Below are positions 31,878-62,062 of a DNA stretch of 64,000 bases, piece after piece. Position numbers and translations under genes: made by a program. The DNA lies in contig DAOUKL010000030.1 of NCBI GenBank assembly GCA_034421335.1, positions 8,753 through 72,752 on the forward strand, written 5' to 3'. Position 1 is the first letter of the stretch, and each line of letters begins with the position of its first letter. This stretch comes from Dehalococcoidia bacterium (GTDB taxonomy: Bacteria > Chloroflexota > Dehalococcoidia > Lucifugimonadales > Australimonadaceae). Under the pieces are notes generated by a model. That model was not told the DNA's origin. It did not search any database and saw nothing but the letters and a program-made list of their open reading frames with translations.

Positions 31878-31879
31878 CA

Positions 31880-33085: not shown

Positions 33086-33183
33086 TTCTCCCCCTGGGGA
33101 AGATGCCGCGAAGCGACAGAGAGGGTCTGCCCGCCGGGCGAGTGTGCAGACTGCGGGGGCGGCGGTTCGCATACAATGGGGGT

Positions 33184-46761: not shown

Positions 46762-49239
46762 ATGACCACCCGCAGCCATACGTCGCCCCTCCGCTACGAC
46801 CCCCGCGAACTCGACCGAAAGTGGCAGCAGCGATGGGCCGACGACGACCTCTACCGCGTGGAGGACGACGACCCTCGTCCGCGCTGGTACGCCCTCACCA
46901 TGTACCCCTACCCCTCCGGCGACCTGCACATCGGGCACTGGTACGCCATGGCCCCGTCGGACGCCCACGCGCGGTTCATGCGGATGCGCGGCTACAACGT
47001 GCTTCACCCCATGGGGTTCGACGCGTTCGGCCTGCCTGCGGAGAACGCCGCCATTCAGCGCGGCATCCACCCCGCCGTGTGGACCATGGACAACATCGAG
47101 CGGATGCGGTCGCAGTTGCGCTCGATGGGGGCCACCTACGACTGGGGCAGGGAGGTGGTGACCTGCCTGCCGGAGTACTACAAGTGGAACCAGTGGTTCT
47201 TCCTCCGCATGTACGAGCGGGGGCTCGCCTACCGCGCAGCCGCGCCCGTGAACTGGTGCCCCACCTGCCAGACCGTCCTCGCCAACGAGCAGGTCGTCGA
47301 CGGCAAGTGCGAGCGCACCGGCGACGTCGTCATTCGCCGCGAGATGGACCAGTGGTTCTTCCGCATCACCGACTACGCGGACGAACTGCTCGACTTCTCC
47401 GGTCTCGTCGACTGGCCGGAGCGCATCAAGACGATGCAGACGAACTGGATCGGCCGCAGCGTGGGGGTCGACATCTCGTTCGACATCTCCGAGCACGGGC
47501 TCGACGAACACGAGATCCGCACTTTCACTACCCGCATCGACACCATCTACGGCGTGACGTTCGTTGCGCTCGCGCCCGAGCATCCCCTCGTCGAGCAGCT
47601 CACGACCCCCGACCACGCCGGCGCCGTGCGTGAGTACGTCGCTCAGGCGCGGGAAGCGTCGGAGATCGACAGGCTCTCCGCCGAGCGCGAGAAGACCGGC
47701 GTGTTCACCGGCGCCTACGCGGTGAACCGCCTCAACGGCGAGCGCGTGCCGATATGGGTGGGAGACTACGTGCTGCTCACCTACGGCACTGGCGCCGTGA
47801 TGGGCGTCCCTGCTCACGACTCGCGGGACTTCGAGTTCGCCAACAAGTTCGGGCTCGACATCCGCGTCGTCGTCGCGCCGCCGGAGTGGGACGGCGCCGC
47901 GCTCCCTGAGGCATGGGTCGAGAAGGATGGAACGCAGGTCAACTCCGGGCAGTTCGACGGCCTCCCGAATGCCGAGGGTTACGAGGCTATCGCCGACCAC
48001 GTCGAGCGGCAGGGCTACGGCAAGCGAACGGTCGGCTACCGGATGCGCGACTGGCTCATCAGCCGTCAGCGTTACTGGGGTACGCCCATCCCCATCGTGT
48101 ACTGCGACTCGTGCGGGGCGCAGCCCACGCCCGATGACCAGTTGCCGGTGCTGCTGCCCGGCGACGCCGAGTTCAGGCCCACCGGCGAGTCGCCGCTGCG
48201 CTATCATGAGGGATTCCTGCACACGACGTGCCCGAAGTGCGGCGGACCAGCGACCCGCGAGACGGACACGATGGACACGTTCGTGGACTCGTCGTGGTAT
48301 TTCTTACGCTATGTAAGCCCTTCCTACGACGGCGCCCCGTTCGACCCTGACAGGGCGGGCGTCTGGAACCCCGTCGACCAGTACACGGGCGGCGCAGAGC
48401 ACGCGGTGATGCACCTGCTCTACGCCCGCTTCTTCACGAAGGTCATCCGCGACCTGGGCCTCATCGACTTCGGTGAGCCGTTCCTGCGCCTCTTCAATCA
48501 GGGCGTCGTGCTCTCAGACCACATGAAGATGAGCAAGAGCCGCGGCAACGTCATCGCCCCCGACGAGTACGTGCAGGAAGTCGGCGCCGACGTCGTGCGG
48601 CTCTACCTCATGTTCATGGGCCCCTGGGAGGGCGGCGGCGACTGGAGCGACACCGGCATCAACGGCGTCGCCCGCTGGGTGAACCGGCTGTGGGACCTCT
48701 GCTCCGCGTCCGACGGAGAGTTGCCGCCGGAGGAGGGCGAGGCCGACCGCGCCATTCTCCGCAAGACGCACCAGACGATCCGCAGCGTCGTCGAGGACTA
48801 CGAGCGCTTCAAGTACAACACGGCGCTCGCCGCGATGATGGAGCTCACCAACGAGCTGGCCCCGGCTTTCGAGAGCCGCAGCGTTTCGCAGGGCGTCTTC
48901 CGCGAGGCGGTCGGCGACCTGCTGCTGCTGATCGCGCCGATGGCCCCTCACCTCGCCGAAGAGCTGTGGGAGCGCACCGGAGGCTCCTACAGCATCCACC
49001 TCCAGCCGATGCCGGAGTTCGACGAGGAGCTCGCCGCCGCTGACGAGGCGACGCTCGTCGTACAGGTGAACGGCCGCGTGCGCGACCGCATCGCCGTCCC
49101 CGCCGACGTCGGCGAGGACGCCGCCAAGGAGACTGCGCTGGCGTCCGGCAAGGTCCGCGCCCACACCGACGGCAAGCAGGTCGGGAAGGTCATCTTCGTG
49201 CCGGGGCGTTACCTGGTGAACATCGTTGTAAGGGAGTAG
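46762..49239 (+). CDS. leuS: Leucine--tRNA ligase
   Basis: PYPSGDLHIGH, GFDAFGLPAENAA, WLISRQRYWG, DTFVDSSWY, GGAEHAVMHLLYARF, KMSKS. Confidence 0.98.
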   Translation: MTTRSHTSPLRYDPRELDRKWQQRWADDDLYRVEDDDPRPRWYALTMYPYPSGDLHIGHWYAMAPSDAHARFMRMRGYNVLHPMGFDAFGLPAENAAIQRGIHPAVWTMDNIERMRSQLRSMGATYDWGREVVTCLPEYYKWNQWFFLRMYERGLAYRAAAPVNWCPTCQTVLANEQVVDGKCERTGDVVIRREMDQWFFRITDYADELLDFSGLVDWPERIKTMQTNWIGRSVGVDISFDISEHGLDEHEIRTFTTRIDTIYGVTFVALAPEHPLVEQLTTPDHAGAVREYVAQAREASEIDRLSAEREKTGVFTGAYAVNRLNGERVPIWVGDYVLLTYGTGAVMGVPAHDSRDFEFANKFGLDIRVVVAPPEWDGAALPEAWVEKDGTQVNSGQFDGLPNAEGYEAIADHVERQGYGKRTVGYRMRDWLISRQRYWGTPIPIVYCDSCGAQPTPDDQLPVLLPGDAEFRPTGESPLRYHEGFLHTTCPKCGGPATRETDTMDTFVDSSWYFLRYVSPSYDGAPFDPDRAGVWNPVDQYTGGAEHAVMHLLYARFFTKVIRDLGLIDFGEPFLRLFNQGVVLSDHMKMSKSRGNVIAPDEYVQEVGADVVRLYLMFMGPWEGGGDWSDTGINGVARWVNRLWDLCSASDGELPPEEGEADRAILRKTHQTIRSVVEDYERFKYNTALAAMMELTNELAPAFESRSVSQGVFREAVGDLLLLIAPMAPHLAEELWERTGGSYSIHLQPMPEFDEELAAADEATLVVQVNGRVRDRIAVPADVGEDAAKETALASGKVRAHTDGKQVGKVIFVPGRYLVNIVVRE

Positions 49240-50118: not shown

Positions 50119-50772
50119 CTACCCAACCCGCAGCACCCACACCCGGGCGGACGGGTGCGGCGCCGAGGTTTCCGCCTCGACCGTCATGCCCGACTCCCGC
50201 AGCACCCACTCCCAATCATCCAGCGTGTACTTGTTGTGGATGCGGAACTGTTCGAGCGCGCGCTCGTACCGCGTCGCCTCCGGCTCCCCCGGCTCCACGA
50301 GGCGTCGCGCGATGTACTCCCGCATCGGCTCCCGGAGCCAGTCGAAGAGCATCATGCGCCCGCCGGGCTTGAGCACGCGCGCCGCCTGCTCTCGCAGGAA
50401 CGTGAACGGGTCGTCAAACGTGTGAAGCACCGCGGTCATCGCCAGCAGGTCCACCGACCCTTCGTCGAACGGGAGGGGGTTGGCCTCGACGTCGAGCAGG
50501 CTCAGCGTGGGGACAGGCCCCGCGTAGTCGAGCGAGCGGGCGTTCTCGATCATCGCCTCGTTGGAGTCGACGCCGTATAGGTGGGCGTCCGGCAGGCGCG
50601 CGGAGAGGTCGCGCAGGAAGAGGCCCGGTCCGGGGCCGATGTCGGCGATGACCGGCGCCGGCGGGAGCGTGGGGGCGATGCGCTCGTCCCAGAACTCCCA
50701 GAACGCCGGGTTGAACCGCAACTCGTACCGTTCGAGCTGGCGGCGCAGCGCGCGGTCGTCGCGGGAGGTCAT
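50119..50772 (-). CDS. Class I SAM-dependent methyltransferase (paralog A)
   Basis: IADIGPGPG, YGVDSNEAMI, LPFDEGSVDL, RVLKPGG; start at ATG 50772. Confidence 0.88.
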   Translation of the reverse strand: MTSRDDRALRRQLERYELRFNPAFWEFWDERIAPTLPPAPVIADIGPGPGLFLRDLSARLPDAHLYGVDSNEAMIENARSLDYAGPVPTLSLLDVEANPLPFDEGSVDLLAMTAVLHTFDDPFTFLREQAARVLKPGGRMMLFDWLREPMREYIARRLVEPGEPEATRYERALEQFRIHNKYTLDDWEWVLRESGMTVEAETSAPHPSARVWVLRVG

Positions 50773-51407
50773 CGCGGCGCGCACGCGAGGGCGACGTGGC
50801 TGACGCGCGGATGCGCCTCGCCGGCGACGTCGAACCCGGCCTCCGCCAGCAGCCACCGCCACTCCTCCGCCGTGAAACGGTTGTGGTGCGGCTGCAGGCT
50901 CATCATTGCCGTAGGATCGTCGCCGAGCCCGCCCCGGTTCTCGATGTAGTCGGTGAGCGATTGCCGCTTCCAGTCGTACAGCAGGTACACGCCGCCGGGC
51001 CGGAGCATCCGGCGCGCCTCTGCGAACAGCACGAGCGGATTGTCGAGGAAACAGACAACGTTCGCAGAGATGCAGAGGTCGAACGACGCGTCCTCCACCG
51101 GGTACGGCGCCTCGTTCAGGTCGTGCTTCGTGAACGACGGTGCGCCCGTCGCGTAGTCGAGATCCCGGGCGTTCGCGAGCATCGCGTCGGACACGTCCAC
51201 ACCGCGCAGTGCGGCGTCCGGAAGCCTCGACGCCAGTTCCTGCAGCAGCAGCCCCGGCCCGCAACCCAGGTCGGCAATCGCAGGCGCCGCGCTGATGCGC
51301 GGGCGGACGGCGGACTCGAAGAACTCCCAGAACGCGGGCGGGTAGCGGCGTCCGGTGTTCGACGACATCCGCTCCACCATAGCGCTCTGGTTCCACCGGG
51401 TGGTCAT
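50769..51407 (-). CDS. Class I SAM-dependent methyltransferase (paralog B)
   Basis: IADLGCGPG, RGVDVSDAML, YPVEDASFDL, RMLRPGG; start at ATG 51407. Confidence 0.88.
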   Translation of the reverse strand: MTTRWNQSAMVERMSSNTGRRYPPAFWEFFESAVRPRISAAPAIADLGCGPGLLLQELASRLPDAALRGVDVSDAMLANARDLDYATGAPSFTKHDLNEAPYPVEDASFDLCISANVVCFLDNPLVLFAEARRMLRPGGVYLLYDWKRQSLTDYIENRGGLGDDPTAMMSLQPHHNRFTAEEWRWLLAEAGFDVAGEAHPRVSHVALACAPR

Positions 51408-51409
51408 CG

Positions 51410-51820
51410 CTACTCCGCCATGTTCACTGTGACGCCCTGCTCCTTGAAGATGTCGCTGGCCGCCTGCATGCCGTTGAACGCCGCCGGAAGCCCCGCGTAC
51501 GGAACGGCCTGCAGCAGCACCTCGGCTATCTCCTCCGGCGTGATGCCGAGGTGGAGCGCGTAGCGGGTGTAGGCGGCGACCTGCGGAGTCCGGCCCATCG
51601 CCGTACACATCCCCAGCACGATCATGCACCGCGTTCGAAGGTCGAGCCGCTCCCGCGACCATATCTCGCCGAAGTTGTACCCGATGACGAACTCCTCGAG
51701 CCCCGGGATCATGTCCAGCCCGGCGGCGTTCCCCGTGCTGCGCGACCCCTCCGACCCGCTGATCGCCTTGCGCACGGCCCTGCCCCGCGCCTTGCTCTCC
51801 TCTGCCTGATGCAGCGACAT
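51410..51820 (-). CDS. Carboxymuconolactone decarboxylase (CMD/AhpD-like) family protein
   Basis: FGEIWSRERLDLRTRCMIV, GITPEEIAEVLLQAVPYAGLPAA; start at ATG 51820. Confidence 0.88.
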   Translation of the reverse strand: MSLHQAEESKARGRAVRKAISGSEGSRSTGNAAGLDMIPGLEEFVIGYNFGEIWSRERLDLRTRCMIVLGMCTAMGRTPQVAAYTRYALHLGITPEEIAEVLLQAVPYAGLPAAFNGMQAASDIFKEQGVTVNMAE

Positions 51821-51935
51821 ACCGACCTCCTCGCACGCCACAAGTTTCCGGGGATGCTACACGACGGAAGGGCCGCGCCGCGCGCCCTTCTTGAAGGACC
51901 GACGACGGCGGGTGCGCGCCCCGGCGATTCGCCGC

Positions 51936-51941
51936 TATAAT
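51936..51941 (+). promoter_or_regulatory. TATAAT -10 element 6 nt before the selD ATG (leaderless mRNA)
   Basis: gccgcTATAATcccaccATG, with no Shine-Dalgarno. Confidence 0.65.
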
Positions 51942-51947
51942 CCCACC

Positions 51948-52997
51948 ATGCAACAGGAAGAGATTCGACTAACCAGTCTGGCCACCTGCGCGGGCTGAGC
52001 CGGCAAGTTCAGCCCCGAGGACCTCGGCGAGGTCCTGAGCCACCTCCCCCACGTGCGGCACGACGACCTGCTCGTGGGGTTCGACACGAGCGACGACGCC
52101 GCCGTCTACCGCCTGGCGGACGACCTCGCCGTCGTCCAGACGATCGATTTCTTCCCGCCCATCGTCGACGATCCGTACGACTTCGGCGCCATCGCCGCGG
52201 TGAACGCCCTGAGCGACGTGTACGCGATGGGAGGAACCCCCCTCCTGGCGCTCAACATCGTCTGCTTCCCCGAAGACCTGCCCAAGGAGATCCTCGGGAG
52301 CATCCTCCTCGGCGGCATGGACGTCGCCAGGGAGGCCGGCATCGTCATCGCCGGCGGCCACACCGTGAAGGACCGCGAGCCCAAGTACGGGCTCTCCGTC
52401 ACCGGCGTCGTACACCCCGACCACATCGTCACGAACGCCGCCGCCGAGGTCGGCGACGAACTGGTGCTGACGAAGCCGCTCGGCTCCGGCATCATCACGA
52501 CGGCGGCCAAGGCCGGCGTTGCTGACGACGCCACGATTGCCGGCGCTATCGCCACGATGCGGCAGCTCAACCGCGCGGGCGGCGAGGCGATGGTGGAGGT
52601 CGGCGTGAAGTCCGCGACCGACATCACTGGATTCGGACTCGTCGGCCACCTTCTCGGGATGCTGCGCGCCAGCGGGACCGCCGCCAAGCTGAACCTCGCC
52701 GACATCCCCCTGCTCCCCGGCGTCCGCGACATAGTCGAACGCGGCGTCGTCCCCGGAGGCACGGGCAACAACCTCGAGGCGTTCCGGAACGACGTCGCCT
52801 GGGGCCCCGGCATAACCGAGGAGGACCGGATCATCCTCTCCGACGCCCAGACGTCGGGCGGGCTGCTGATAGCGGCGCCGCCCGGATCGACGCAGACGCT
52901 GCTCGACGCCCTGGCCCGGCGCGGCGCCCCCGGCGTCGTGGTAGGGCGCGTCGTGGCCCGCGAGGACGTTGCCAACACCATCGAGGTCGCGTCGTAG
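51948..52997 (+). CDS. selD: Selenophosphate synthetase (selenide, water dikinase), Sec-containing (SenC of the selenoneine cluster)
   Basis: ATG 51948 reads MQQEEIRLTSLATCAG-U-AGKFSP with TGA 51996-51998 as codon 17, in frame with track ORF 52053-52997. Motifs DDAAVY, QTIDFF, NALSDVYAMGG, GGHT, TDITGFGL, DAQTSGGLL. Confidence 0.96.
52018..52036 (+). promoter_or_regulatory. Putative bacterial SECIS hairpin for the selD UGA
   Basis: 8-bp stem AGGACCTC/GAGGTCCT, loop GGC beginning 27 nt after the UGA. Confidence 0.65.
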
Positions 52998-53019
52998 CAG
53001 GCGCAGGTTCTCCCGCGGA

Positions 53020-54333
53020 ATGAGCGCTTTCGATCTGCCAGCCGCGCCTCCCCGCAGCGCGCGAGAACTCGCCGCCGACGCGTGGGACGCCGCGCAGACC
53101 GTCCTCGCGCTGACGGCGGACCTCGACTCCGCCCAGCAGCAGGGCCCCATGATCCCCATCGTAAACCCCGCCCTCTGGGAGGTCGGCCACGTCGGGTGGT
53201 TCTTCGAGAAGTGGACGCTGCGCAATCTGTACGAGGCCTCGGCGATGATCGACCGCGCCGACGAGCTGTACGACTCCGCCGCCATCGCCCATGACACCCG
53301 CTGGCGTCTCGCTTTCCCGACGTGGGAGCAGACCCGGGAGTTCGTGACTGAGGTCGTGCGCAACGCCACCGGGCCGATAGAGCGCCGCGAGCCGAACGCC
53401 CTGGAGCAGTACTTCCTGCAACTCGCTGCGTTCCACACCGATATGCATGCCGAAGCGTTTACCTACACCCGCCAGACGCTGGGCTTCAGCGAGGTGAGCC
53501 TTACGGCGCCCGTCGTGCTTCCCTCCCCCGAGCCCGGCTTCGAGCCGCACGACGTTGCCGTCCCCGGTGGAACGTTCATCCTCGGCCCGGTCGAGGGCGA
53601 ACTGCCGTTCGTGTTCGACAACGAGAAATGGGGCCACGAGACCCGCGTCGAGCCGTTCGCCATCGCCGCAACCGCCGTTACCAACGGCGAGTTCCTCCGG
53701 TTCGTCGAGGCCGGCGGCTACCGCGACCGCTCATGCTGGTCGGACGCCGGGTGGTGGTGGAAGCAGGCGGCCGGCGCGGAGCACCCCGTCTACTGGCGGC
53801 GCGAACGCGACGGCTCCTGGCTGGCGCGGCGCTACGACGCCTGGGGGCCCATCGACCCCCACGCGGCAATCATCCACGTCAACTGGCACGAGGCCAACGC
53901 CTACTGTGCGTGGGCGGGACGCCGTCTGCCGACCGAGGCGGAGTGGGAATTCGCGGCCTCCGGCGGCGCGAACGGCGCCCCCAAGCGGCGCTACCCCTGG
54001 GGCGACGAGCCTCCGTCCCCCGAACGCGCGAACCTCGACTTCCGCGGACGTGGAACGGTCGACGTGCGCGCGCTCCCGGCGGGCGACACTCCGCTCGGCT
54101 GCCGGCAGATGCTCGGCAACGTGTGGGAGTGGACGGCCACCGAGTTCGGCCCGTATCCCGGCTTCACCCCCGACCCCTACAAGGAGTACTCGCAGCCCGC
54201 GTTCAGCGGCCACAGGGTGCTGCGTGGCGGCGCCTGGAGCACCCGCTCCCGCCTCATCCGCAACACCTGGCGGAACTTCTACACCCCCGACCGGCGCGAC
54301 GTGATGTGCGGCTTCCGCACCTGCGCCGCCTGA
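53020..54333 (+). CDS. senA: Selenoneine synthase (EgtB-related non-heme iron enzyme, DinB-like plus FGE-sulfatase domains)
   Basis: IVNPALWEVGHVGWF, YDSAAIAHDTRW, FHTDMHAEAFTYTRQTL, RRLPTEAEWE, GNVWEW, RNFYTPDRRD; directly between selD and senB; start at ATG 53020. Confidence 0.9.
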   Translation: MSAFDLPAAPPRSARELAADAWDAAQTVLALTADLDSAQQQGPMIPIVNPALWEVGHVGWFFEKWTLRNLYEASAMIDRADELYDSAAIAHDTRWRLAFPTWEQTREFVTEVVRNATGPIERREPNALEQYFLQLAAFHTDMHAEAFTYTRQTLGFSEVSLTAPVVLPSPEPGFEPHDVAVPGGTFILGPVEGELPFVFDNEKWGHETRVEPFAIAATAVTNGEFLRFVEAGGYRDRSCWSDAGWWWKQAAGAEHPVYWRRERDGSWLARRYDAWGPIDPHAAIIHVNWHEANAYCAWAGRRLPTEAEWEFAASGGANGAPKRRYPWGDEPPSPERANLDFRGRGTVDVRALPAGDTPLGCRQMLGNVWEWTATEFGPYPGFTPDPYKEYSQPAFSGHRVLRGGAWSTRSRLIRNTWRNFYTPDRRDVMCGFRTCAA

Positions 54334-54349
54334 GCGGCGCGGAGCCGTC

Positions 54350-55306
54350 GTGTACATCGGACTGGCGACCCCCGCGCCGCCCGGAAGCCGCAGCGGCAAC
54401 CGCGTCACCGCCAGCCGGTGGGCCGGCTTCTTCCGCGAACTCGGCCACCGCGTCGCCGTCCGCCAGACCTACGACGGCGAGAACTTCGACCTCCTCGTCG
54501 CCGTCCACGCGCTGCGCAGCGCGCAGTCCGTGCGGGAGTTCAACGCCCGCCGTCCCGGCCGCCCCGTCATCGTCCTGCTCGCCGGCACGGACGTCTACGG
54601 CCCACTCTACGAGGAGGGCGGCGGCCCTGTGCTCGATGTGGCGGCGCGGGTCGTAACGCTGCAGCGCCTCGCCATCGAGGAATTGCGCCCCGAGCACCGG
54701 CCCAAGGTCCGCGCAATCGTCCAGTCCGCCCGGCCCACGCCCACGGCGGGGCCGTCGCCCAACGCCCGCACGTTCGACGTGAGCGTCGTCGGGCACTTGC
54801 GTCCGGTGAAAGACCCCTTCCTCGCCGCCGCCGCAACCCGACGCCTCCCGCGGGAGTCCCACATCCGCATCCTCCAACTCGGCGACGCGATGACGCCAGA
54901 GATGGCGCGCCATGCGAACGCGCTCGCCGCCGCTCATCCTCGCTACGAGTGGCGGCGGGGACTCCCGTCCTGGCGCGCCCGCCGCGTGCTCAAGAGGTCG
55001 CAGGTCATGGTGATATCGTCGATTTCCGAGGGCGGCGCCAACGTGGTATCCGAGGCGGTTGTCGACGGCGTGCCCGTGCTGGCGTCGCGGATGCCTGGCA
55101 ACGTGGGGCTGCTTGGCGACGACTATCCCGGCTACTTTCCCGTGGGCGATGGCGCGGAACTGCGGCGGCTCCTGCTCCGCTGCGAGCGTGAGCCGGCGTT
55201 CCTCGCGCAACTGCGCGACGCTGCAGCCCCGCTCCGCGCCACCCTCAACCCGGAGCGCGAGCGCGACGACTGGCGCTCGCTGCTGGAGGAGCTGGGGTTG
55301 GGGTAG
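54350..55306 (+). CDS. senB: Selenosugar synthase (GT-B glycosyltransferase, TIGR04348-like)
   Basis: GNRVTASRW, HALRS, GTDVY, VGHLRPVK, SEGGANVVSE, LASRMPGNVGLLGDDYPGYFPVGD match the recalled SenB pattern. Confidence 0.92.
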   Translation: MYIGLATPAPPGSRSGNRVTASRWAGFFRELGHRVAVRQTYDGENFDLLVAVHALRSAQSVREFNARRPGRPVIVLLAGTDVYGPLYEEGGGPVLDVAARVVTLQRLAIEELRPEHRPKVRAIVQSARPTPTAGPSPNARTFDVSVVGHLRPVKDPFLAAAATRRLPRESHIRILQLGDAMTPEMARHANALAAAHPRYEWRRGLPSWRARRVLKRSQVMVISSISEGGANVVSEAVVDGVPVLASRMPGNVGLLGDDYPGYFPVGDGAELRRLLLRCEREPAFLAQLRDAAAPLRATLNPERERDDWRSLLEELGLG

Positions 55307-55316
55307 GGGACGCCCG

Positions 55317-56195
55317 TTAACGCGCCAGCCGCCGCATGGCGGCTGCGAAGAGGTCGACCCCGATGACCAGCAGCAGGTACCACGCAAGCAGCAGTGTCAC
55401 CGTCGTGTAGTGGAAGTGGCTCATCGCGAGCCGGAACTCCATGCCGAGTCCGCCCGCAGCGACGAGCCCCACTACGATGGTCGTGCGGATGATCACCTCC
55501 CAGCGGTAGAACAGGTAGGTGACGAACCGGGGCAGCGCCATCGGAAGCACGGCGTAGACGATCACCTGGAACCATCCCGCCCCCGACGTACGGAGCGCGC
55601 GCGCAGGGCGCGTGTCGAGCCCCTCCACGACCTCCGCCGACAGCTTGCCGAGAATGCCGAAATTGTGCGCCGCCAGCGCAATCGCCCCCGGCAGGATCCC
55701 CGGCGAGAAGATGAACACCAGCAGCATCGCCCAGATGAGTTCCGGCACCGAGCGGCTGAGCACGTACGCGAGACGCACCGCGAAGAACCACGCCTGCCAC
55801 ACGGGGTTGCGGTACGGCGCCAGTTCGCCCGACATCACGTTCCGCGCCGCGAACATGAACGTGAGCAGCGCGCCGATCGCCGCAAGTCCCGCCGCCAGTA
55901 CGCTCATCGCCAGCGTGTCCAGCGCCAGCCCCCCGGCCTCCGCCCACGCCGAACCGTCGAGGTACGCCGGCGTCCGCTCGCTTCCCGACCCCGCAAGCTC
56001 GCCGAGGAACGACCACGCCCGCGACCCCGTCTCGCCGGAGAAGAACCCGTGGCTCGGCCAGCGCTGCGCGAACACGATGTACGTCCACGCGCTTGCCGCC
56101 AGCATCGCCGCCGCGATGACCGAACCCGACACGAACGACAGCCGTAGCCCCCGCGGCCCCGGCGCGGAGTAGGCGGGCGTCGGCGGCGCGCTCAC
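55317..56195 (-). CDS. PhnE/PtxC-type ABC transporter permease 2
   Basis: SRSVPELIWAMLL, GILGKLSAEVVE, YRWEVIIRTTIVVGLVAAGGLG; start GTG 56195 approximate. Confidence 0.88.
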   Translation of the reverse strand: MSAPPTPAYSAPGPRGLRLSFVSGSVIAAAMLAASAWTYIVFAQRWPSHGFFSGETGSRAWSFLGELAGSGSERTPAYLDGSAWAEAGGLALDTLAMSVLAAGLAAIGALLTFMFAARNVMSGELAPYRNPVWQAWFFAVRLAYVLSRSVPELIWAMLLVFIFSPGILPGAIALAAHNFGILGKLSAEVVEGLDTRPARALRTSGAGWFQVIVYAVLPMALPRFVTYLFYRWEVIIRTTIVVGLVAAGGLGMEFRLAMSHFHYTTVTLLLAWYLLLVIGVDLFAAAMRRLAR

Positions 56196-56965
56196 GGAAC
56201 GATTCTCCGCCGCACCTGCGAGCTCCACAGGTCCACGAGCACGACCAGTCCCACCAGCACCCACAGGAACGTCCATACGCGGGCGTACGCGAGGTCCTCG
56301 AGGGCGATCTGCACCTGGAACCCCAGCCCGCCGAGCCCGACCCACCCCAGCACCGCCGCCGACCGGATGCCGCACTCGAACCGGTAGAACGTGTACGAGA
56401 GCATGTCCGGCAGCGCCATCGGCAGCCTGCCGAACAGGAACACGCGCCATTCCGAGGCCCCGGAGCGCCGTAGAGCCTCCAGCGGCGCCTGCGGCACGTC
56501 TTGCAGCAGCTCCGAGTAGATGCGCCCAAGGATGCCCCCGTAAGGAATCCCCAGCGCCAGCACCGCCGCCATCGGCGACAACCCGATGGCCGCGACGAAC
56601 AACAGCGCCCACACCAGCTCGTGGATCGCCCGGAAGAACGCCAGCGCCCCCCGGGCCGTGCCGATCTGCGCCGCGGCGCCCCGGCGCGATTTCGCCAGCG
56701 CTCCCGACGCGATCACGCCCAGTGGAATGCCGATGCACAGCGCGACCGTCATGCCCGCCACTGCGTACGCCACGGTCTGCCACGCGGCGCCGGCGGCCTT
56801 CGCAAGAAGGTCCGGCGAGAGGTCAGGCCGGAAAAGTGCCCCGAGCGTGTCGACTACCGCGCTCAGGCCCCGGGGCTTGAACACCCCCTCGCTCCAATCG
56901 ACGCCCAGCAGGCTCAGTGCGAACGCGCCGATGAGGATGAGGGTTATGACGCGCCGGCCCTCCAT
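56192..56965 (-). CDS. PhnE/PtxC-type ABC transporter permease 1
   Basis: RAIHELVWALLF, GGILGRIYSELL, YRFECGIRSAAVLGWVGLGGLG; start at ATG 56965. Confidence 0.88.
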   Translation of the reverse strand: MEGRRVITLILIGAFALSLLGVDWSEGVFKPRGLSAVVDTLGALFRPDLSPDLLAKAAGAAWQTVAYAVAGMTVALCIGIPLGVIASGALAKSRRGAAAQIGTARGALAFFRAIHELVWALLFVAAIGLSPMAAVLALGIPYGGILGRIYSELLQDVPQAPLEALRRSGASEWRVFLFGRLPMALPDMLSYTFYRFECGIRSAAVLGWVGLGGLGFQVQIALEDLAYARVWTFLWVLVGLVVLVDLWSSQVRRRIVP

Positions 56966-57008
56966 CGTCCGCGGGCCTTCCCGGGGAGGCGTCGATGTCG
57001 CCGGCGGG

Positions 57009-57752
57009 TCAGACCTCACTCCGCAGGCCTTCGATTTCGTACAGCTCCGCCAGCATGCCGTCGTGCACGTCGCACGCCGGCGCGTCGAACTGCACCACTC
57101 CGTTGCGTAGACCGATGATGCGGTCGAAGCGTTCGCGCGCCAGATCCACGGAGTGCAGGCTCGCTATGAGCGTCTCGCCGCGCTCGTCGGTAACCGCCGT
57201 CAACAAGCCCAGCGCCTCCCGCGCGCGCGCCGGATCGAGCGACGCCACCGGCTCGTCCGCGAGCACCACGGTCGGGTTCTGCACGAGCACGCGCGCGATG
57301 GCGACGCGCTGCTGCTCGCCTCCGGAGAGGCGCCCGGCGCTCTGGTGCGCGAGTTGGGCGACGCCCACCCGGTCGAGCGCCTCCATGGCCACGCGGCGCT
57401 CCTGCGGCCACACGAGCGAGAGGAGCGACCGCGCCAGGCTCCAGTCGCCGAGCCTCCCCGCCAGCACGTTGTGCAGCGCCGAGAGGTTGGGCACGAGGTC
57501 GAACTGCTGCGCAATCATGCCGACGAGCCTGGCCAGCTCGCGCCCGGGCCGGAGCCGCGCGAGGTCGCGCCCGCAAAGCTCGACCACGCCGGTCGTCGGG
57601 GCGATGGCGCCCGCCATGAGCCGCAGCAGCGTCGTCTTCCCGGCGCCGCTCGGCCCTATCACCGCCACCCGTTCGCCGCGCTCAATGGCGAAATCCAACG
57701 GCGCCAGCACGATCGTTTGACCGTAGCGCATCGATGCGCCGTCGAACCGCAC
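57009..57752 (-). CDS. PhnC-type ABC transporter ATP-binding protein
   Basis: GPSGAGKTT, LSGGEQQRVAIAR, LADEPVASLDP; start uncertain (GTG 57752 or up to 57830). Confidence 0.92.
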   Translation of the reverse strand: MRFDGASMRYGQTIVLAPLDFAIERGERVAVIGPSGAGKTTLLRLMAGAIAPTTGVVELCGRDLARLRPGRELARLVGMIAQQFDLVPNLSALHNVLAGRLGDWSLARSLLSLVWPQERRVAMEALDRVGVAQLAHQSAGRLSGGEQQRVAIARVLVQNPTVVLADEPVASLDPARAREALGLLTAVTDERGETLIASLHSVDLARERFDRIIGLRNGVVQFDAPACDVHDGMLAELYEIEGLRSEV

Positions 57753-57792
57753 GGCCGGCGCCGCCGCCGGCGCCTCCGATGGATAGAGGGCG

Positions 57793-58668
57793 CTACTCGA
57801 TAATGCCGAATTCGCGTGCGGCATCCTCAATCGCCTGGTACCTGTCGTTGCTCGTGCGAACGAACCTTTGGCCGTTGAATGACTCGGCGATCTCCTGCGC
57901 CCGCCCGCCCCGGTCGACGTCGACAGTGAGCAGCGCGTCGGTGATGTTGTCCAACGCGCCCTCGCCGAACTCGTCGTCGATCGAGGGGTGCGCCACCCAG
58001 TGGTAGTTGACGTATGCCGGCGTTCGGTAGAACACGTCGACCTTGGACGTGTCGACGTCGCCGGCCGCGACGCGCCTCTCCCACACGGCCTCGCTGAGCG
58101 CGCCGGCGTCGAACGAGCCGGCCTCCACGAGCTTCCACGTGCGGTCGTGCGAGCCGCTGAAGCTGATGGAGCTGAGCTCCGTCTCCGTGTCGACTCCCGC
58201 CTGGCTCAGGTAGTAGCGGGGCATCAGGTGCCCGGACGTCGAGCTTTCCGAGCCGAACGTCACCGTCTTGCCGCGCAGGTCTTCGAGGCTGTCGATGCCC
58301 GAACCGGGCGCCGAGACGAAGACGGAATGGAACTCGCCGTCGCGCGGGCGGTGCGCGATGGCGTTGGCCTCGGGAACAGCGATGCGCGCCTGCACGCCCG
58401 TGACGGCGCCGTACCACACCAGGTGGATGTCGCCCTGCTTGAACGACGTGACGACGGCGGCGTAGTCGGCCTGCGGCACGTAACGCACGCTGTAGCCGGT
58501 CTCTTCCGCAAGGTGCTCGGCGAGCCTGTTGAAGCGCTCTTCCAGAACGCTGACGTCCTGGTCGGGGATGCCCGCGATGAGCAGCTCCGGCGTGTCGCCG
58601 CCGTCCGAGCACGCGGCGGCGATTCCCAGCAGCGCGACGCTGGCGAGCGCCGTCAATATCTTCCTCAT
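57793..58668 (-). CDS. PhnD-family ABC substrate-binding lipoprotein, putative selenate-transporter subfamily
   Basis: Lipobox AAAC; IPDQD, DYAAVVTSF..GDIHLVWYGAVTGVQAR, FHSVFV, TFGSESSTSGHLMPRYYL, FSGSHD. Confidence 0.8.
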   Translation of the reverse strand: MRKILTALASVALLGIAAACSDGGDTPELLIAGIPDQDVSVLEERFNRLAEHLAEETGYSVRYVPQADYAAVVTSFKQGDIHLVWYGAVTGVQARIAVPEANAIAHRPRDGEFHSVFVSAPGSGIDSLEDLRGKTVTFGSESSTSGHLMPRYYLSQAGVDTETELSSISFSGSHDRTWKLVEAGSFDAGALSEAVWERRVAAGDVDTSKVDVFYRTPAYVNYHWVAHPSIDDEFGEGALDNITDALLTVDVDRGGRAQEIAESFNGQRFVRTSNDRYQAIEDAAREFGIIE

Positions 58669-58734
58669 GTTGCTCCTACCGATGAGAGGGATAGGACGCC
58701 ATGATACTGTCGAGCGACGCCAACCGGCGGTTTC

Positions 58735-58751
58735 GATTACAATTCTGCATC
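58735..58751. promoter_or_regulatory. Candidate LysR box (GA-T-N11-A-TC) in the ABC/LysR divergent region
   Basis: GATtacaattctgcATC, an AT-rich patch in GC-rich DNA, about 30 nt upstream of a TATCAT -10 on the minus strand (58701-58706). Confidence 0.4.
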
Positions 58752-58763
58752 ACAGCGCCTCAG

Positions 58764-58910
58764 TGCCCCTCCCCACGGGGGGAGGGGCAGGGGAGAGGGA
58801 GGGCTGGCCCCCTCCCCCCGAGGGGGAGAGCCAGGGAGAGGGCCGCGCGCGAAGCGCACCCCCACTCTCCCCCCGAGGGGGAGATGCCCCGAAGGGGCAG
58901 AGAGGGCGGT
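58764..58910. repeat. Composite REP-like cluster
   Basis: Several CCCCT..GGGG hairpins; CCCCCGAGGGGGAGATGCCCCGAAGGGGC is shared with 61966-62008 and is similar to 33086-33128. Confidence 0.75.
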
Positions 58911-58950
58911 TCCGTCAGGGCGCCGAATGAGAAGGGGAGAGGGCGGCACA

Positions 58951-59865
58951 ATGGACATCAGCGCGCTTCGCAGCTTCGTAGCCGTCTGCCGCGCCGGAAG
59001 CTTCCGGGAGGCGGCGCGCGAGCGCCACGTCAGCCAGCCCGGCGTCAGCCGCCACATCAAGCGGCTCGAGGCCGAACTCGGCGTGGCCCTCCTCGCGCGC
59101 AGCCAGCGCCGGGCGACTCCGACAGCCGCCGGAAGCCGCCTCTTCGCCCACGCCGTCGACGCCATCGCCGCGCACGACCGCATCATCGAGTCCCTCGCGC
59201 GCGAGGACGCCGCCGTCCGGGGCGAGCTCCTCATCGCCGCCAGCACCACGCCGGGTGAGTACCTCCTCCCCCGCCTCCTCTCCGACTTCACCGAAATCTA
59301 CCCTGACGTCCGGCCCAACGTCGTCGTCACCGACTCCGCCGCCGCCATCGCCAGCGTCGAAAGCGGCGCCTCCACCCTCGGCTTCGTCGGGATGCGGGCG
59401 CCGCACTCGGACCTGGCGTCGACGCTTTTCACGGAGGATGAACTGGTCCTCGCCGTACCCGGACGCCACCCCTTCGCGGGCAGGGCGTGGATCGACGTAT
59501 CGGAGCTGCGGGGACTGCCCTTCATCGAGCGCGAGCCGGGGTCGGGCGCGTGGGCGGGCTTCCGGCGCGCGCTCGAGCGAGCAGGCTCGCCGGAGCCCGG
59601 CTACCGGCCCGTCATGGTCGTCAATTCGACGCACGCGACGCTCGCAGCCGTGAACAGCGGTTTCGGCTTCAGCGTGGTGTCGTCGCTTGCGGTGCACGAG
59701 CACGAGTTCGAACAGGTCTACCCCGCGCGCCTCACCGGGCTCGACACGCGCCGCAGCCTCTACATGATCAAGCGCCCTTCCTGCACTGCGCCCACCGCCC
59801 TCGCCTTCGGCGACTGGGTGCTCGCACGGCTCGCGCCGGAGCGCGAGACCACCCGAGAGGAGTAG
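58951..59865 (+). CDS. LysR-family transcriptional regulator (CysL / selenium-associated type)
   Basis: LRSFVAVCRAGSFREAARERHVSQPGVSRHIKRLE, IAASTTPGEYLLPRLL; start at ATG 58951. Confidence 0.9.
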   Translation: MDISALRSFVAVCRAGSFREAARERHVSQPGVSRHIKRLEAELGVALLARSQRRATPTAAGSRLFAHAVDAIAAHDRIIESLAREDAAVRGELLIAASTTPGEYLLPRLLSDFTEIYPDVRPNVVVTDSAAAIASVESGASTLGFVGMRAPHSDLASTLFTEDELVLAVPGRHPFAGRAWIDVSELRGLPFIEREPGSGAWAGFRRALERAGSPEPGYRPVMVVNSTHATLAAVNSGFGFSVVSSLAVHEHEFEQVYPARLTGLDTRRSLYMIKRPSCTAPTALAFGDWVLARLAPERETTREE

Positions 59866-59872
59866 TCCCCAA

Positions 59873-60850
59873 ATGCCCCCTGCCTTCACCGTTGCCGTCC
59901 ACATCTCCACCGACGACGAGCGCGCCTCGGCGGTTGACGAGATCGTCCGAGGGCTCACCTCGTCGCCCAAGACGCTCAGCCCCAAGTTCCTCTATCACGA
60001 GGCCGGCGCCGGCCTGTTCGACGAGATAACGCAGCTCGAGGAGTACTACCCCACCCGTATCGAACGGTCGCTCCTCGAGTGTTTCGGCGCCGAGATCGTC
60101 GGCGACGTTCAGCCGCGGGAAATCGTCGAGCTTGGGCCCGGCAACAGCGCCAAGACCGGGCTGCTGCTACGACCGGCCCTTCAGGCGGAAACGCTGCGGC
60201 GGTACATCCCGTTCGACATCAGCGAGTCGGCGGTGCGTGAGGGCGCGGAGGCGCTCGCCGCCGCACACCCCGAACTCCCCGAGATCGCCGCCGTTATCGG
60301 CGACTTCGGGCGGCATCTCCCCTCGGTCCCGCCAGCGGAGGGGCCGCGCCTCGTCGCCTTCCTCGGCTCCACCATCGGCAACCTGCATCCGGACGAGCAG
60401 AGGGAATTCCTCGCCGACGTACGCGGGATGATGCCGGCGTCCGGCGGAGCCCTCCTCATCGGCGCCGACCTCGTAAAGGATGTGAGCGTCATCGAGGCGG
60501 CCTACAACGACGCCAGGGGCGTCACCGCGCAGTTCAACCTCAACTCCCTCAACGCCGTGAACGATCTGCTCGGCGCTCGCATCGACGTCTCCCTCTTCCG
60601 GCATTGCGCCTTCTTCAACGCCGGGCGCTCCCGCATCGAGATGCACCTCGAGGCCCTCGCCGACGTTGCGATTCCGCTGCCGGCGGGCGGCGAGGCGGTC
60701 GTCCGCGCCGGAGAAACAATCTGGACGGAGAGTTCGTACAAGTTCACGAAGGACGGCTTCGCCGCAACGCTCGCGGACGCTGGGTTCGGCAGCGCCCGCT
60801 GGTTCACCGACCCCGACGACCTCTTCGCGCTCGTCCTCGCCAAACCGTAA
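59873..60850 (+). CDS. egtD: L-histidine N(alpha)-trimethyltransferase (hercynine synthase)
   Basis: PKTLSPKFLY, LFDEITQLEEYYPTR, VELGPG, FLGSTIGNL, AYNDARGVTAQFNLN, RIEMHL, TESSYKFT. Confidence 0.93.
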   Translation: MPPAFTVAVHISTDDERASAVDEIVRGLTSSPKTLSPKFLYHEAGAGLFDEITQLEEYYPTRIERSLLECFGAEIVGDVQPREIVELGPGNSAKTGLLLRPALQAETLRRYIPFDISESAVREGAEALAAAHPELPEIAAVIGDFGRHLPSVPPAEGPRLVAFLGSTIGNLHPDEQREFLADVRGMMPASGGALLIGADLVKDVSVIEAAYNDARGVTAQFNLNSLNAVNDLLGARIDVSLFRHCAFFNAGRSRIEMHLEALADVAIPLPAGGEAVVRAGETIWTESSYKFTKDGFAATLADAGFGSARWFTDPDDLFALVLAKP

Positions 60851-60914
60851 CCCCTCCGGCCCCCTCCCTCGAAGTCGGGGGAGGGCTGGGGTGAGGGTTT
60901 GCGCGCGCAAGCGC
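60851..60914. repeat. REP-like palindrome (inverted copy of the 2380-2430 element)
   Basis: Reverse complement gcgcttgcgcgcgcaaaccctcaccccagccctcccccgacttcgagggagg aligns with 2380-2430. Confidence 0.7.
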
Positions 60915-60930
60915 GCATCCGCCGGCGTTC

Positions 60931-61890: not shown

Positions 61891-61902
61891 GCGCGCAGCA
61901 TA

Positions 61903-62062
61903 CCCCCTCCCCCGAAGACGGGGGGAGGGCTCCGTCGCCCGCGAAGGCGGGAATCCATCCCCATGTCTCCCCCCGAGGGGGAGATGCCCCGAAGGGGCGG
62001 AGAGGGCGCATCCGTCGCCTGCGAAAGCAGGAATCTCGCCCCCTCCGTCGTTCGGGAGACGG
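61903..62062. repeat. Composite REP cluster (BIME-like)
   Basis: GTCGCCCGCGAAGGCGGGAATCCA (61934) and GTCGCCTGCGAAAGCAGGAATC (62014) flank the element shared with 58866-58907. Confidence 0.8.

Follow-up and report, generated by a model that had tools for sequence, protein, structure and literature searches.

A textbook senA-senB pair within a predicted selenoneine gene island of a Chloroflexota genome

Introduction

The biosynthetic pathway of selenoneine, a selenium antioxidant, was described in 2022 (Kayrouz et al. 2022). The sen cluster of Variovorax paradoxus DSM 30034 encodes SenA, SenB and SenC (Kayrouz et al. 2022; structures 8k5i/8ryz and 8fbx/8jjn), and a subset of sen clusters is accompanied by a putative selenate transporter (Kayrouz et al. 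2022). Two relatives of SenA with solved structures are OvsA of Halomonas utahensis (8u41/8u42; Kayrouz et al. 2024) and the type I EgtB of Mycolicibacterium thermoresistibile (4x8b/4x8d).

The locus described here lies in a 64,000-nucleotide stretch of DNA, called the window below. It contains the same three protein families as the V. paradoxus cluster, with the same predicted chemistry. Judging from homology, by which every step of the pathway can be assigned, positions 51935-60850 very probably form an island that is self-contained for selenoneine biosynthesis, in the genome of a Chloroflexota bacterium of class Dehalococcoidia. The senA and senB genes are a textbook pair within this complete gene island, which is an ordinary further member of a known pathway and leaves the known facts about that pathway unchanged.

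Organization and relatives of the island

Besides senA and senB, the two genes noted in the first-pass annotation, which overlooked the others, the island holds selD/senC, a putative selenate ABC importer, a gene for a LysR regulator and egtD (Table 1). All of these are co-located here, whereas egtD and the transporter occur in only a subset of the clusters described earlier (Kayrouz et al. 2022). In profile searches SenA, SenB, SelD, EgtD and the importer binding protein all score above the curated NCBIfam cut-offs. The selD, senA and senB genes are on one strand, separated by gaps of 22 and 16 nucleotides, and look like a single operon starting from a conserved TATAAT box.

Table 1. Features of the selenoneine island and their positions in the window
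Feature	Position	Strand	Remarks
Probable -10 box CTATAATC	51935..51942	+	TATAAT at 51936-51941; 6 nt 5' of the selD ATG
selD/senC, selenophosphate synthetase	51948..52997	+	349 codons; in-frame TGA 51996-51998 probably read as Sec (U17)
SECIS-like hairpin	52018..52036	+	8-bp stem AGGACCUC/GAGGUCCU, GGC loop; loop G 30 nt after the U of UGA
senA, selenoneine synthase (non-heme iron selenoxide synthase)	53020..54333	+	ATG 53020, 437 aa; NF041186
senB, selenosugar synthase (GT-B Se-glycosyltransferase)	54350..55306	+	GTG 54350, 318 aa; TIGR04348
PhnE-like ABC permease 2	55317..56195	-	Likely start GTG 56195, overlapping the permease 1 stop (GTGA)
PhnE-like ABC permease 1	56192..57019	-	Start codon uncertain; TIGR01097 197 bits, below cut-off
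PhnC-like ABC ATPase	57009..57830	-	Start codon uncertain; TIGR02315 230 bits, below cut-off; synteny kept
Periplasmic binding protein, "putative selenate ABC transporter" family	57793..58668	-	TIGR04553 307.6 bits (cut-off 250)
LysR-family regulator	58927..59865	+	Divergent from the transporter operon; egtD follows 7 nt later
egtD, L-histidine N-alpha-trimethyltransferase (hercynine, co-substrate of SenA)	59873..60850	+	TIGR03438 316 bits (cut-off 290.9)

The nearest genomes are Dehalococcoidia metagenome-assembled genomes (MAGs) with identical synteny, and the ten-gene order is kept in the Dehalococcoidia/Chloroflexota genomes L001, L002 and L081-83. Three Chloroflexota MAG loci, OZ252088.1, OZ242348.1 and GCA_028874795.1 (JAPPHT010000008.1), have the ten genes in the order of the window; their SenA proteins are 81-82% identical to that of the window and share its HTDMH signature, their SenB proteins have the same A78 and N231, and their selD genes carry the same TGA. 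The flanks differ. Upstream of selD the window has a CMD-family gene and two methyltransferase genes where GCA_028874795.1 has an MFS transporter gene, and downstream it has an MFS transporter gene and a hisA-like gene in contrast to a glmS-like gene. The upstream genes MT1 (50119-50772), MT2 (50769-51407) and CMD (51410-51841) were considered as island members (OvsM or a selenium methylase) and rejected, since 79 of the 80 sen loci lack them, the syntenic L001 and L002 among these. All three match generic families only.

In a wider sample of 80 loci from many phyla, senB adjoins a senA relative in 71. No second EgtB-like gene or SenA paralogue was found within the window. The nearest named relatives of the leucyl-tRNA synthetase (LeuRS) are from Chloroflexota and SAR202, which points to a host in Chloroflexota, near SAR202. 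The first-pass annotation had proposed a senA-senB pair of Chloroflexota origin. Both open reading frames are where it placed them and exceed the curated NCBI cut-offs, and the origin agrees with the syntenic Dehalococcoidia MAGs and the LeuRS relatives. It had also expected an automated pipeline to call senA egtB. Some older NCBI records do use EgtB, but NCBI already assigns SenA: a protein 82% identical to that of the window is named "selenoneine synthase SenA [Chloroflexota bacterium]", and SenA is the name in the GCA_028874795.1 record. The JGI label for Chloroflexota homologues is "iron(II)-dependent oxidoreductase". Proteins of the SenA and SenB kind are already covered by the NCBI annotation models. 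A literature search for selenoneine in Chloroflexota found no paper in the collection searched.

SenB and its sugar donor

SenB scores 355 bits on TIGR04348 (cut-off 300, E=2e-106) and aligns with the V. paradoxus SenB structures 8jjn/8fbx (E=7e-53). The pattern from which it had been recognized is present throughout, as SGNRVTASRW, HALRS, AGTDVY, GHLRPVK and EGGANVVSE. Residues K154, N17, T20, E227, E235, N231 and A78 correspond to K158, N20, T23, E231, E239, H235 and T83 of V. paradoxus SenB, for which residue roles have been reported (PMC10891094). In V. paradoxus numbering, the catalytic Lys158, the donor-selectivity triad N20/T23/E231, the ribose-binding E239 and the acetyl-contacting V157 are all kept, and 12 of the 14 experimentally probed residues are identical. 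The selenophosphate pocket (N20, H58, R61, T83, T85, R155) is identical at five of its six positions, T83 being replaced by alanine. This replacement is also found in L001 and L002 and is a minority state, present in six of the 71 SenB proteins that adjoin SenA relatives and were used to obtain residue frequencies. Single alanine mutants of pocket residues showed lowered activity and no more than that (PMC10891094).

The other difference from V. paradoxus is the asparagine of EGGANV. The literal EGGAHV motif (Huang et al. 2024), which was derived from beta-proteobacterial sequences, is absent from the SenB of the window. The first-pass annotation had taken EGGANV for a variation. It does differ from the V. 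paradoxus sequence but is no deviation for the family, as asparagine occupies this position in 68 of the 69 neighboring SenB proteins in which it could be scored, across phyla and including Burkholderiales and Halomonas. EGGAHV does not define the SenB family, and its label "conserved" is an artifact of beta-proteobacterial sampling that makes the motif unsafe as a family criterion.

It had further been suggested that EGGANV could alter the donor preference. On this reading SenB would favor, for example, UDP-Glc, UDP-Gal or UDP-GalNAc by virtue of N231 and A78 while the pathway and product stay the same. Some properties of V. paradoxus SenB fit such a shift: the enzyme is itself promiscuous, accepting six UDP-sugars, its H235 contacts the C4' hydroxyl of the sugar, and mutants of Q131 or H235 show slightly altered activity across donors. 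In another structure, however, it is the main-chain amide of residue 235 that contacts the phosphates. Because asparagine is the usual residue at this position, N231 is no special feature of the senB of the window, and the selectivity triad is kept together with V157. A shifted preference is thus unlikely, and it would leave the end product identical, since the sugar is lost during the SenA step. UDP-GlcNAc is the likeliest donor, in view of the conserved V157, N20, T23 and E231.

SelD and selenocysteine

The selD gene is directly upstream of senA and is concealed from open reading frame calling by the in-frame TGA at 51996. Its 314-residue part scores 364 bits on TIGR00476 (cut-off 125) and 343 bits on NF002098 (cut-off 299). 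Read through, the protein has the motif C-A-G-U-A-G-K and aligns over its full length with Escherichia coli SelD (3u0o), U17 falling on Cys17 and K20 on Lys20. The same correspondence with the catalytic Cys/Sec and Lys holds for Sec-containing SelD proteins such as that of Aquifex aeolicus (Sec-to-Cys crystal variant, 2yye/2zod). The SelD of the window is predicted to be of the canonical Sec type, in contrast to the sampled proteobacterial SenC proteins, which carry CGGCGAK and are about 35% identical. Sec-type selD genes otherwise stand alone or beside selA or selU, whereas the selD of the window opens a probable selenoneine operon.

An identical TGA is present in eight related selD loci, from Dehalococcoidia, Rubrobacter-type Actinobacteria, Gemmatimonadaceae, Thermoanaerobaculia and a Lambdaproteobacteria MAG, and NCBI calls a 349-residue read-through SelD in GCA_028874795.1. 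Hairpins of 6-8 bp with G-containing loops lie 3' of the UGA in all eight loci, and a compensatory change distinguishes L073 from L042. The folding z-scores of the SECIS-like hairpin are weak, about -1.3 to -1.5, and unremarkable for the GC content. A scan of the window at Rfam gathering thresholds detected one tRNA-Gly and no SECIS family.

Alternatively, the TGA might be a true stop, selD being a pseudogene or starting at GTG 52053, and the island inactive or dependent on another selD. Mechanical gene calling does yield the 314-residue piece alone, as do the ENA gene calls on relatives, and the window shows no genes for Sec decoding. Yet the 16 codons 5' of the TGA are in frame and specify the conserved N-terminus of SelD (MQQEEIRLTSLATCAG-U-AGK), the TGA falls exactly at the position of the catalytic Cys17, the arrangement recurs with a downstream hairpin in the eight loci across phyla, and truncation would deprive SelD of its glycine-rich catalytic loop. 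A true stop is accordingly very improbable. Read-through as selenocysteine, the preferred reading, implies a host able to decode UGA in this way; this capacity is inferred, as no selA, selB or tRNA-Sec was found within the window, where tRNA-Gly is the sole tRNA.

SenA and its substrates

SenA has a DinB + FGE-sulfatase architecture and passes the equivalog model NF041186 with 471 bits (cut-off 420, E=3e-141). As controls on this model, V. paradoxus SenA scores 517 bits and residues 38-467 of OvsA score 413 bits, below the cut-off. The family scores of SenA and SenB exclude a chance resemblance. Alignment with M. thermoresistibile EgtB, OvsA and V. paradoxus SenA identifies the Fe ligands H57, H139 and H143 and the catalytic Y387. 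The hercynine triad Y390, N419 and F420 aligns with Y366, N395 and F396 of V. paradoxus SenA. On the selenosugar side the residues are N49, E54, H91, R94, Y421 and R425, compared with S, D, R, R, D and R in EgtB. Thus His91 and Tyr421 replace the thiol-binding pair Arg87/Asp416 of EgtB, a replacement by His and Phe/Tyr that has been described for all SenA proteins. The composite SenA motif xNEH--HRHxHYYN(F/Y)(F/Y)R (Kayrouz et al. 2024) is matched at all 16 specified positions, including the Y/N/F triad, and differs from V. paradoxus SenA only at an allowed F/Y position (NFY versus NFF). The same alignment-based extraction also returns the motifs published for OvsA, EgtB-I and V. paradoxus SenA. 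From these residues SenA is predicted to catalyze formation of the C2-Se bond between hercynine and SeGlcNAc.

The motifs reported for SenA in the first-pass annotation, NPALWEVGH, YDSAAIAHDTRW and HTDMH, are all present, although its pattern "YDS..AH" is one dot short, three residues separating YDS from AH. HTDMH had been regarded as a variation of a proteobacterial HEDMH with a possible effect on substrate preference. The sequence does differ from that of V. paradoxus SenA, which actually reads HEAMH, but it carries little weight for substrate preference: the variable position is not a ligand, and relatives of SenA have E, Q, H, T, A or G there (Q in OvsA). HTDMH is, from these comparisons, a lineage signature at a variable position.

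SenA of the window carries a loop of about 50 residues (314-365), an EgtB-like segment. The loop is lacking in V. paradoxus SenA, the one SenA with an in vitro reconstitution in the literature consulted, to which the SenA of the window is about 42% identical; the assignment of this "long-form" clade to SenA is accordingly a motif-based suggestion. The loop matters for the possibility that the enzyme is of the OvsA type, selenylating free histidine at C5, and that the product of the cluster is ovoselenol rather than selenoneine. OvsA of H. utahensis is the closest solved structure by score (305 and 295 bits, against 243 for V. paradoxus SenA) and can be aligned collinearly with the SenA of the window from end to end, loop included. 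The two proteins have the Fe triad, the catalytic tyrosine and the selenosugar-side NEH/HR residues in common, and in a rough neighbor-joining tree OvsA branches beside the clade containing the SenA of the window. Two genes for SAM-dependent methyltransferases lie just upstream on the other strand. However, the higher rank of OvsA is due mainly to the absence of the loop from V. paradoxus SenA, and the engineered OvsA-YNF (8ux5) outscores wild-type OvsA because the SenA of the window has the Y/N/F residues. The OvsA motif ...YMQAYR, with its histidine-binding M/Q/A, is absent: M401, Q430 and A431 of OvsA correspond to Y390, N419 and F420, exactly the substitutions (M401Y, Q430N, A431F) that switch OvsA to SenA chemistry in mutagenesis. 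Most ovs organisms lack egtD, which is present in the island. No OvsM (ovothiol-type N-pi methyltransferase) was found among the island or nearby methyltransferases; the upstream pair are generic class I enzymes that do not match the ovothiol N-methyltransferase family and, apart from one weak match, are absent from all other sen loci. The Y/N/F residues, the egtD gene in the island and the control scores on the SenA model led to rejection of the OvsA reading despite the top PDB match, and this reading has very little probability.

That senA is instead an ordinary egtB, acting with cysteine or gamma-glutamylcysteine in ergothioneine synthesis beside an unrelated glycosyltransferase, is scarcely credible: although SenA has the domain architecture, fold, three-His site, catalytic Tyr and hercynine-binding Y/N in common with the 37% identical EgtB of M. 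thermoresistibile, egtD is nearby and some older public records call relatives EgtB, the protein scores 308 bits on the EgtB model TIGR03440 (cut-off 360), the EgtB-I thiol-binding residues S, D, R, R, Q, W, D (S/D, R87, Q137, W and D416 of the M. thermoresistibile enzyme) are replaced by the SenA-type N, E, H, R, M, F, Y, and senA is flanked by selD and a TIGR04348 senB, an arrangement kept across phyla. Clustering with canonical EgtB had been proposed as an outcome that would speak against SenA; the neighbor-joining tree puts the protein in the SenA/OvsA group, apart from the M. thermoresistibile EgtB.

Promoter, importer, regulator and EgtD

The sequence CTATAATC is invariant in a three-genome alignment of the window, L001 and L002, in which the DNA farther upstream is unrelated. 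It is probably a -10 box, and the operon mRNA may then be leaderless or nearly so. A consensus promoter and terminator scan of positions 51300-62300 gave nothing above shuffled expectation; it missed the TATAAT because there is no -35 match.

Selenate is the putative substrate of the ABC importer, the name of the binding-protein family being itself "putative". PhnD-like relatives adjoin sen genes in about 12 of the 80 loci, in different phyla. Permease 1 is 85-86% identical in L001 and L002, and permease 2, which scores 167 bits on TIGR01097, below the phosphonate cut-off, is kept in L001, L002 and L081-83. The regulator scores 228.9 bits on NF040786 ("selenium metabolism-associated LysR"), just below the cut-off of 250, the next-best LysR model giving 126 bits. 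Its likelier start is ATG 58951, which has a purine-rich stretch resembling a ribosome-binding site upstream. The gene is kept in L001, L002 and L081-82, where lysR and egtD share 4 nucleotides. EgtD matches Pfam Methyltransf_33 (E=4e-95) and is syntenic and 71-74% identical in L001 and L002. For a conserved unknown protein beside egtD, structure prediction and a fold search found no more than a generic TIM-barrel likeness to GH35 enzymes.

Proposed pathway

In the pathway suggested by these assignments, the ABC importer, consisting of the TIGR04553 binding protein, the ATPase and the two permeases, would take up a selenium oxyanion, which cellular thiols would convert to selenide. Sec-containing SelD/SenC would use ATP to form selenophosphate. 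SenB would then move the sugar of a UDP-sugar, most likely UDP-GlcNAc, to selenophosphate, and its K154 (K158 in V. paradoxus) would help to hydrolyze the Se-P bond, giving 1-seleno-GlcNAc. EgtD would trimethylate histidine to hercynine. SenA, with its three-His Fe(II) site, O2 and the catalytic tyrosine, would couple C2 of hercynine to the selenosugar; the selenoxide so formed would lose the sugar by spontaneous elimination, and reduction would yield selenoneine. The predicted targets of the LysR protein are the divergent transporter operon and lysR-egtD.

Implications

As an example of the selenoneine pathway the island is well resolved, and it comes from an uncultured lineage of Chloroflexota. 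With importer, regulator, selenophosphate synthetase, selenosugar synthase, hercynine synthase and selenoneine synthase within 9 kb, it is a convenient unit for heterologous expression. Beyond the one on EGGAHV, it carries two further cautions for annotation. Gene callers that halt at the UGA of selD conceal the third sen gene. Lists of solved structures rank OvsA over SenA for "long-form" SenA proteins, so that the three substrate residues, and not the top match, should decide the assignment.

A more far-reaching proposal, rather doubtful at present, is that the island is a selenium-gated, ergothioneine-independent selenoneine module whose first cistron, selD, itself needs selenocysteine. If so, a leaderless operon mRNA would tie translation of the pathway to the selenium supply in a positive feedback, and with an egtD, importer and regulator of its own the island would not depend on an egt pathway. 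Uncultured, SAR202-related Dehalococcoidia would then be so far unrecognized producers of selenoneine.

Identification of senA and senB

The two genes were assigned with curated NCBIfam models and their cut-offs. ORF 1 scores 471 bits against the "selenoneine synthase SenA" model NF041186 (cut-off 420) and 308 bits against the EgtB model TIGR03440 (cut-off 360). ORF 2 scores 355 bits against TIGR04348, "selenosugar synthase SenB" (cut-off 300). The scores support the senA-senB identity claimed in the first-pass annotation, whose quoted motifs were all found in the translations of 53020-55306, although in "YDS..AH" the gap is three residues and not two. Pfam finds only generic domains in the two proteins (DinB_2/FGE-sulfatase and Glycos_transf_1). 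As controls for the SenA model, Variovorax paradoxus SenA scores 517 bits, and residues 38-467 of OvsA, the ovoselenol enzyme of Halomonas utahensis, score 413 bits, just below the cut-off.

Features of the window and their positions
Feature	Position	Strand	Remarks
hisA-like gene	63343-63795		Pfam His_biosynth match
GC-rich intergenic repeats	33066-33135; 58847-58916; 61947-62016		paired hairpins
Gene for conserved 321-aa protein	60931-61896	-	just past egtD
Inverted pair, 34 nt	2387-2420 / 60872-60905		94% complementary
PhnE-like permease 1	56192-57019	-	overlapped at its stop by permease 2 start
PhnE-like permease 2	55317-56783	-	mechanical ORF, 488 aa
senB (ORF 2)	54350-55306	+	GTG start to stop, 318 aa
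senA (ORF 1)	53020-54333	+	ATG start to stop, 437 aa
selD, as listed	start 52053		314-aa fragment
Hairpin in selD	52018-52036		8 bp, GGC loop, 22 nt past UGA
selD, extended frame	start ATG 51948		
CMD-family gene, then two methyltransferase genes	50119-51841	-	
LeuRS gene	46762-49239		housekeeping
purL-like gene	36591-39026		
ORF for membrane-anchored protein	34898-35863	+	321 aa, lower-GC patch
Repeat in this ORF	35121-35281		two tandem 84-nt (28-aa) units
purQ-like gene	34166-34879		
ribH-like gene	about 33200-33680		
ribBA-like gene	31766-33085		

The SenA active site

A search of solved structures with SenA gave an unexpected ranking, in which the engineered OvsA-YNF entry 8ux5 (305 bits), OvsA 8u41 (295 bits) and Mycolicibacterium thermoresistibile EgtB (250 bits) stand above V. 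paradoxus SenA (243 bits). The low score of the V. paradoxus enzyme arises because it lacks a segment matching residues 314-365 of the window protein, which is kept in the window SenA, OvsA and EgtB. The engineered entry outscores wild-type OvsA because the window SenA has Y390, N419 and F420 at the positions of OvsA M401, Q430 and A431, as found by residue-by-residue alignments. The substitutions M401Y, Q430N and A431F turn OvsA into a hercynine-using, C2-selenylating SenA (PMC11030361).

The published composite motifs are xNEH--HRHxHYYN(F/Y)(F/Y)R for SenA, xNEH--HRHxHYMQAYR for OvsA and xSDH--RRHQHYYNWDR for EgtB-I (Kayrouz et al. 2024, PMC11030361). When the motif was extracted by alignment from 120 database homologues and three reference proteins, the window SenA showed NEH-HR-HMH-YY-NFY-R, a motif found unchanged in 87 of 119 homologues, and OvsA, EgtB-I and V. 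paradoxus SenA yielded their published motifs. The thiol-binding pair Arg87/Asp416 of EgtB is replaced by His and Phe/Tyr in all SenAs (Kayrouz et al. 2022); the window protein has H91 and Y421 at these positions. In a neighbor-joining tree rooted on EgtB, which is crude and was sampled with a bias towards relatives of the query, V. paradoxus SenA branches first and OvsA second, followed by a large "long-form" clade whose members include the window SenA and three Dehalococcoidia sequences. This tree suggests that OvsA may have originated within the long-form SenAs.

Both histidines of the HTDMH stretch are iron ligands. The corresponding stretch is HEAMH in V. paradoxus SenA and HQNMH in OvsA. 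The residue after the first histidine lies outside the 17 composite-motif positions. In 56 of the 80 sampled loci carrying SenA relatives this residue is E, and Q, H, T and G are also seen. HTDMH itself occurs in 20 of the best 120 database proteins, nearly all of them within the top 21 scorers and at least 66% identical. It is a lineage signature whose functional meaning is not evident, and the effect on substrate preference earlier proposed for it finds no support.

SenB

The window SenB aligns with V. paradoxus SenB (8jjn/8fbx) with an E-value of 7e-53. Of the residues that were mutated in PMC10891094, it keeps N20, T23, H58, R61, T85, D86, Q131, R155, V157, K158, E231 and E239 (V. paradoxus numbering), whereas T83 and H235 are replaced by Ala and Asn. 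The frequency of these replacements was determined in 71 SenBs adjoining SenA relatives in the 80 loci. Ala occupies the T83 position in six of the 71, the two closest genomes among them. At the H235 position, 68 of the 69 scorable SenBs have Asn and one has His. The "highly conserved EGGAHV" was described from more than 200 sequences, mainly beta-proteobacterial (PMC10891094). EGGANV is therefore the common form and not, as had been proposed, a variation that might alter function. V157 contacts the acetyl group in the V. paradoxus enzyme (PMC10891094), and its retention together with the N20/T23/E231 triad would be consistent with UDP-GlcNAc as the sugar donor.

SelD and its probable selenocysteine codon

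The gene directly upstream of senA is listed as a SelD fragment. When extended back to the upstream ATG, the frame reads MQQEEIRLTSLATCAG-TGA-AGKFSPEDL... Once the stop is replaced by Cys, the protein can be aligned with Escherichia coli SelD over its entire length, the TGA corresponding to the catalytic Cys17 and K20 to Lys20. The in-frame TGA is shared by eight related loci (three Dehalococcoidia, two Rubrobacter-type and one each from Thermoanaerobaculia, Gemmatimonadaceae and Lambdaproteobacteria). A hairpin follows the UGA and comparable hairpins were found in all eight loci; its folding z-scores are weak and a scan of Rfam gave no match. In GCA_028874795.1 the NCBI annotation has a 349-residue read-through SelD and the ENA caller a 314-residue protein.

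Two kinds of SelD are found beside sen clusters in the 80 loci. The TGA type, predicted to contain selenocysteine, shares 40-83% identity with the window SelD and occurs in non-proteobacterial phyla and one Lambdaproteobacteria metagenome-assembled genome (MAG). The Cys type is found in Proteobacteria; the SenC proteins sampled there carry the motif CGGCGAK and are about 35% identical to the window SelD (range about 32-39%).

Transporter, regulator and egtD

On the opposite strand, 3' of senB, lie four transporter genes, two for PhnE-like permeases and one each for a PhnC-like ATPase and a binding protein. The binding protein scores 307.6 bits against TIGR04553, "putative selenate ABC transporter substrate-binding protein" (cut-off 250), and about 12 of the 80 loci, spread over several phyla, have a PhnD-like gene adjoining sen genes. 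Kayrouz et al. [quoted passage not shown] The ORF of permease 2 matches PhnE only in its last ~205 residues (283-485). Its true start is likely the GTG at 56195, and the resulting GTGA overlap with the stop of permease 1 suggests translational coupling. The LysR regulator, on the plus strand, has "selenium metabolism-associated LysR" as its top model, at 228.9 bits just below the cut-off of 250. It is followed after 7 nt by egtD (TIGR03438, 316 bits; cut-off 290.9).

Taxonomy and island boundaries

The nearest SenAs among GTDB species representatives are 81% identical and come from OZ252088.1 and OZ242348.1, both complete chromosomes of Dehalococcoidia MAGs, which have the full selD-to-egtD order of ten genes and the conserved hypothetical gene past egtD. 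NCBI lists an 82% identical protein as "MAG: selenoneine synthase SenA [Chloroflexota bacterium]", and its contigs share the synteny. The nearest named relatives of LeuRS are "Chloroflexota bacterium" (83%) and "SAR202 cluster bacterium" (75%). The earlier assignment to a probable Chloroflexota genome is borne out by these relatives and narrows to the class Dehalococcoidia. The GC content is uniform over the island and its flanks (~0.68-0.71) and thus gives no hint of recent transfer.

Upstream of selD, an alignment of three genomes shows that CTATAATC is invariant and ends 6 nt before the ATG, the DNA beyond being unrelated. This break marks the island's left boundary, and it suggests that the selD transcript would be leaderless or nearly so. 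The carboxymuconolactone decarboxylase family (CMD, AhpD-like) gene and two methyltransferase genes upstream were considered as island members and left out, because their place next to sen genes is not conserved in other clusters. The methyltransferases are class I SAM-dependent paralogs with 38% mutual identity. All three genes are divergent from selD, and similarity to ArsM-type models is weak.

Neighboring genes and repeats

The 321-residue protein encoded past egtD, conserved in the window and five relatives with the same ten-gene order, matched no Pfam or NCBIfam family. It has only 60 homologues in a set of 5.8 billion proteins; five of these carry the name of an organism, and four of the five are "hypothetical" proteins of Chloroflexi/Chloroflexota. 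Its confident AlphaFold model (pLDDT 91.8) is a (beta/alpha)8 TIM barrel, closest to the catalytic domains of GH35 beta-galactosidases (TM ~0.69, 10-14% identity), and a CxCxxC motif (C143, C145, C148) is invariant in the family. That the protein recycles a sugar by-product would be pure speculation. In three of the relatives (L081-L083, the Chloroflexota loci with 82% identity) the barrel gene is followed by a glmS-like gene with GATase and SIS domains (18690-20543, minus strand), whereas the window has an MFS transporter gene and the hisA-like gene in this place. GlmS is a source of the UDP-GlcNAc precursor.

The short intergenic repeats have the hairpins CTCCCCC-CGA-GGGGGAG and TGCCCC-GAA-GGGGCA, and copies match the reference one at 84% and 61% identity. 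They flank the block of lysR, egtD and the 321-residue protein gene and look REP-like. The tandem units of the membrane-anchored protein read TSxLEARLKxxEAxVGSTxxGSQPxDA. The five housekeeping-like genes were recognized from their translations, hisA alone being compared with a family model.

Significance

The gene pair is ordinary, one more instance of a pathway that has been known since 2022. About 1,500 SenA sequences have already been classified, dedicated NCBIfam models exist for the parts of the island, and Chloroflexota homologues already carry the SenA name in public records. We infer all mechanistic steps from the homologous enzymes of V. paradoxus and H. utahensis. Of most use among the new results are the complete island, the SelD of probable selenocysteine type, and the cautions on hit ranking and motifs.
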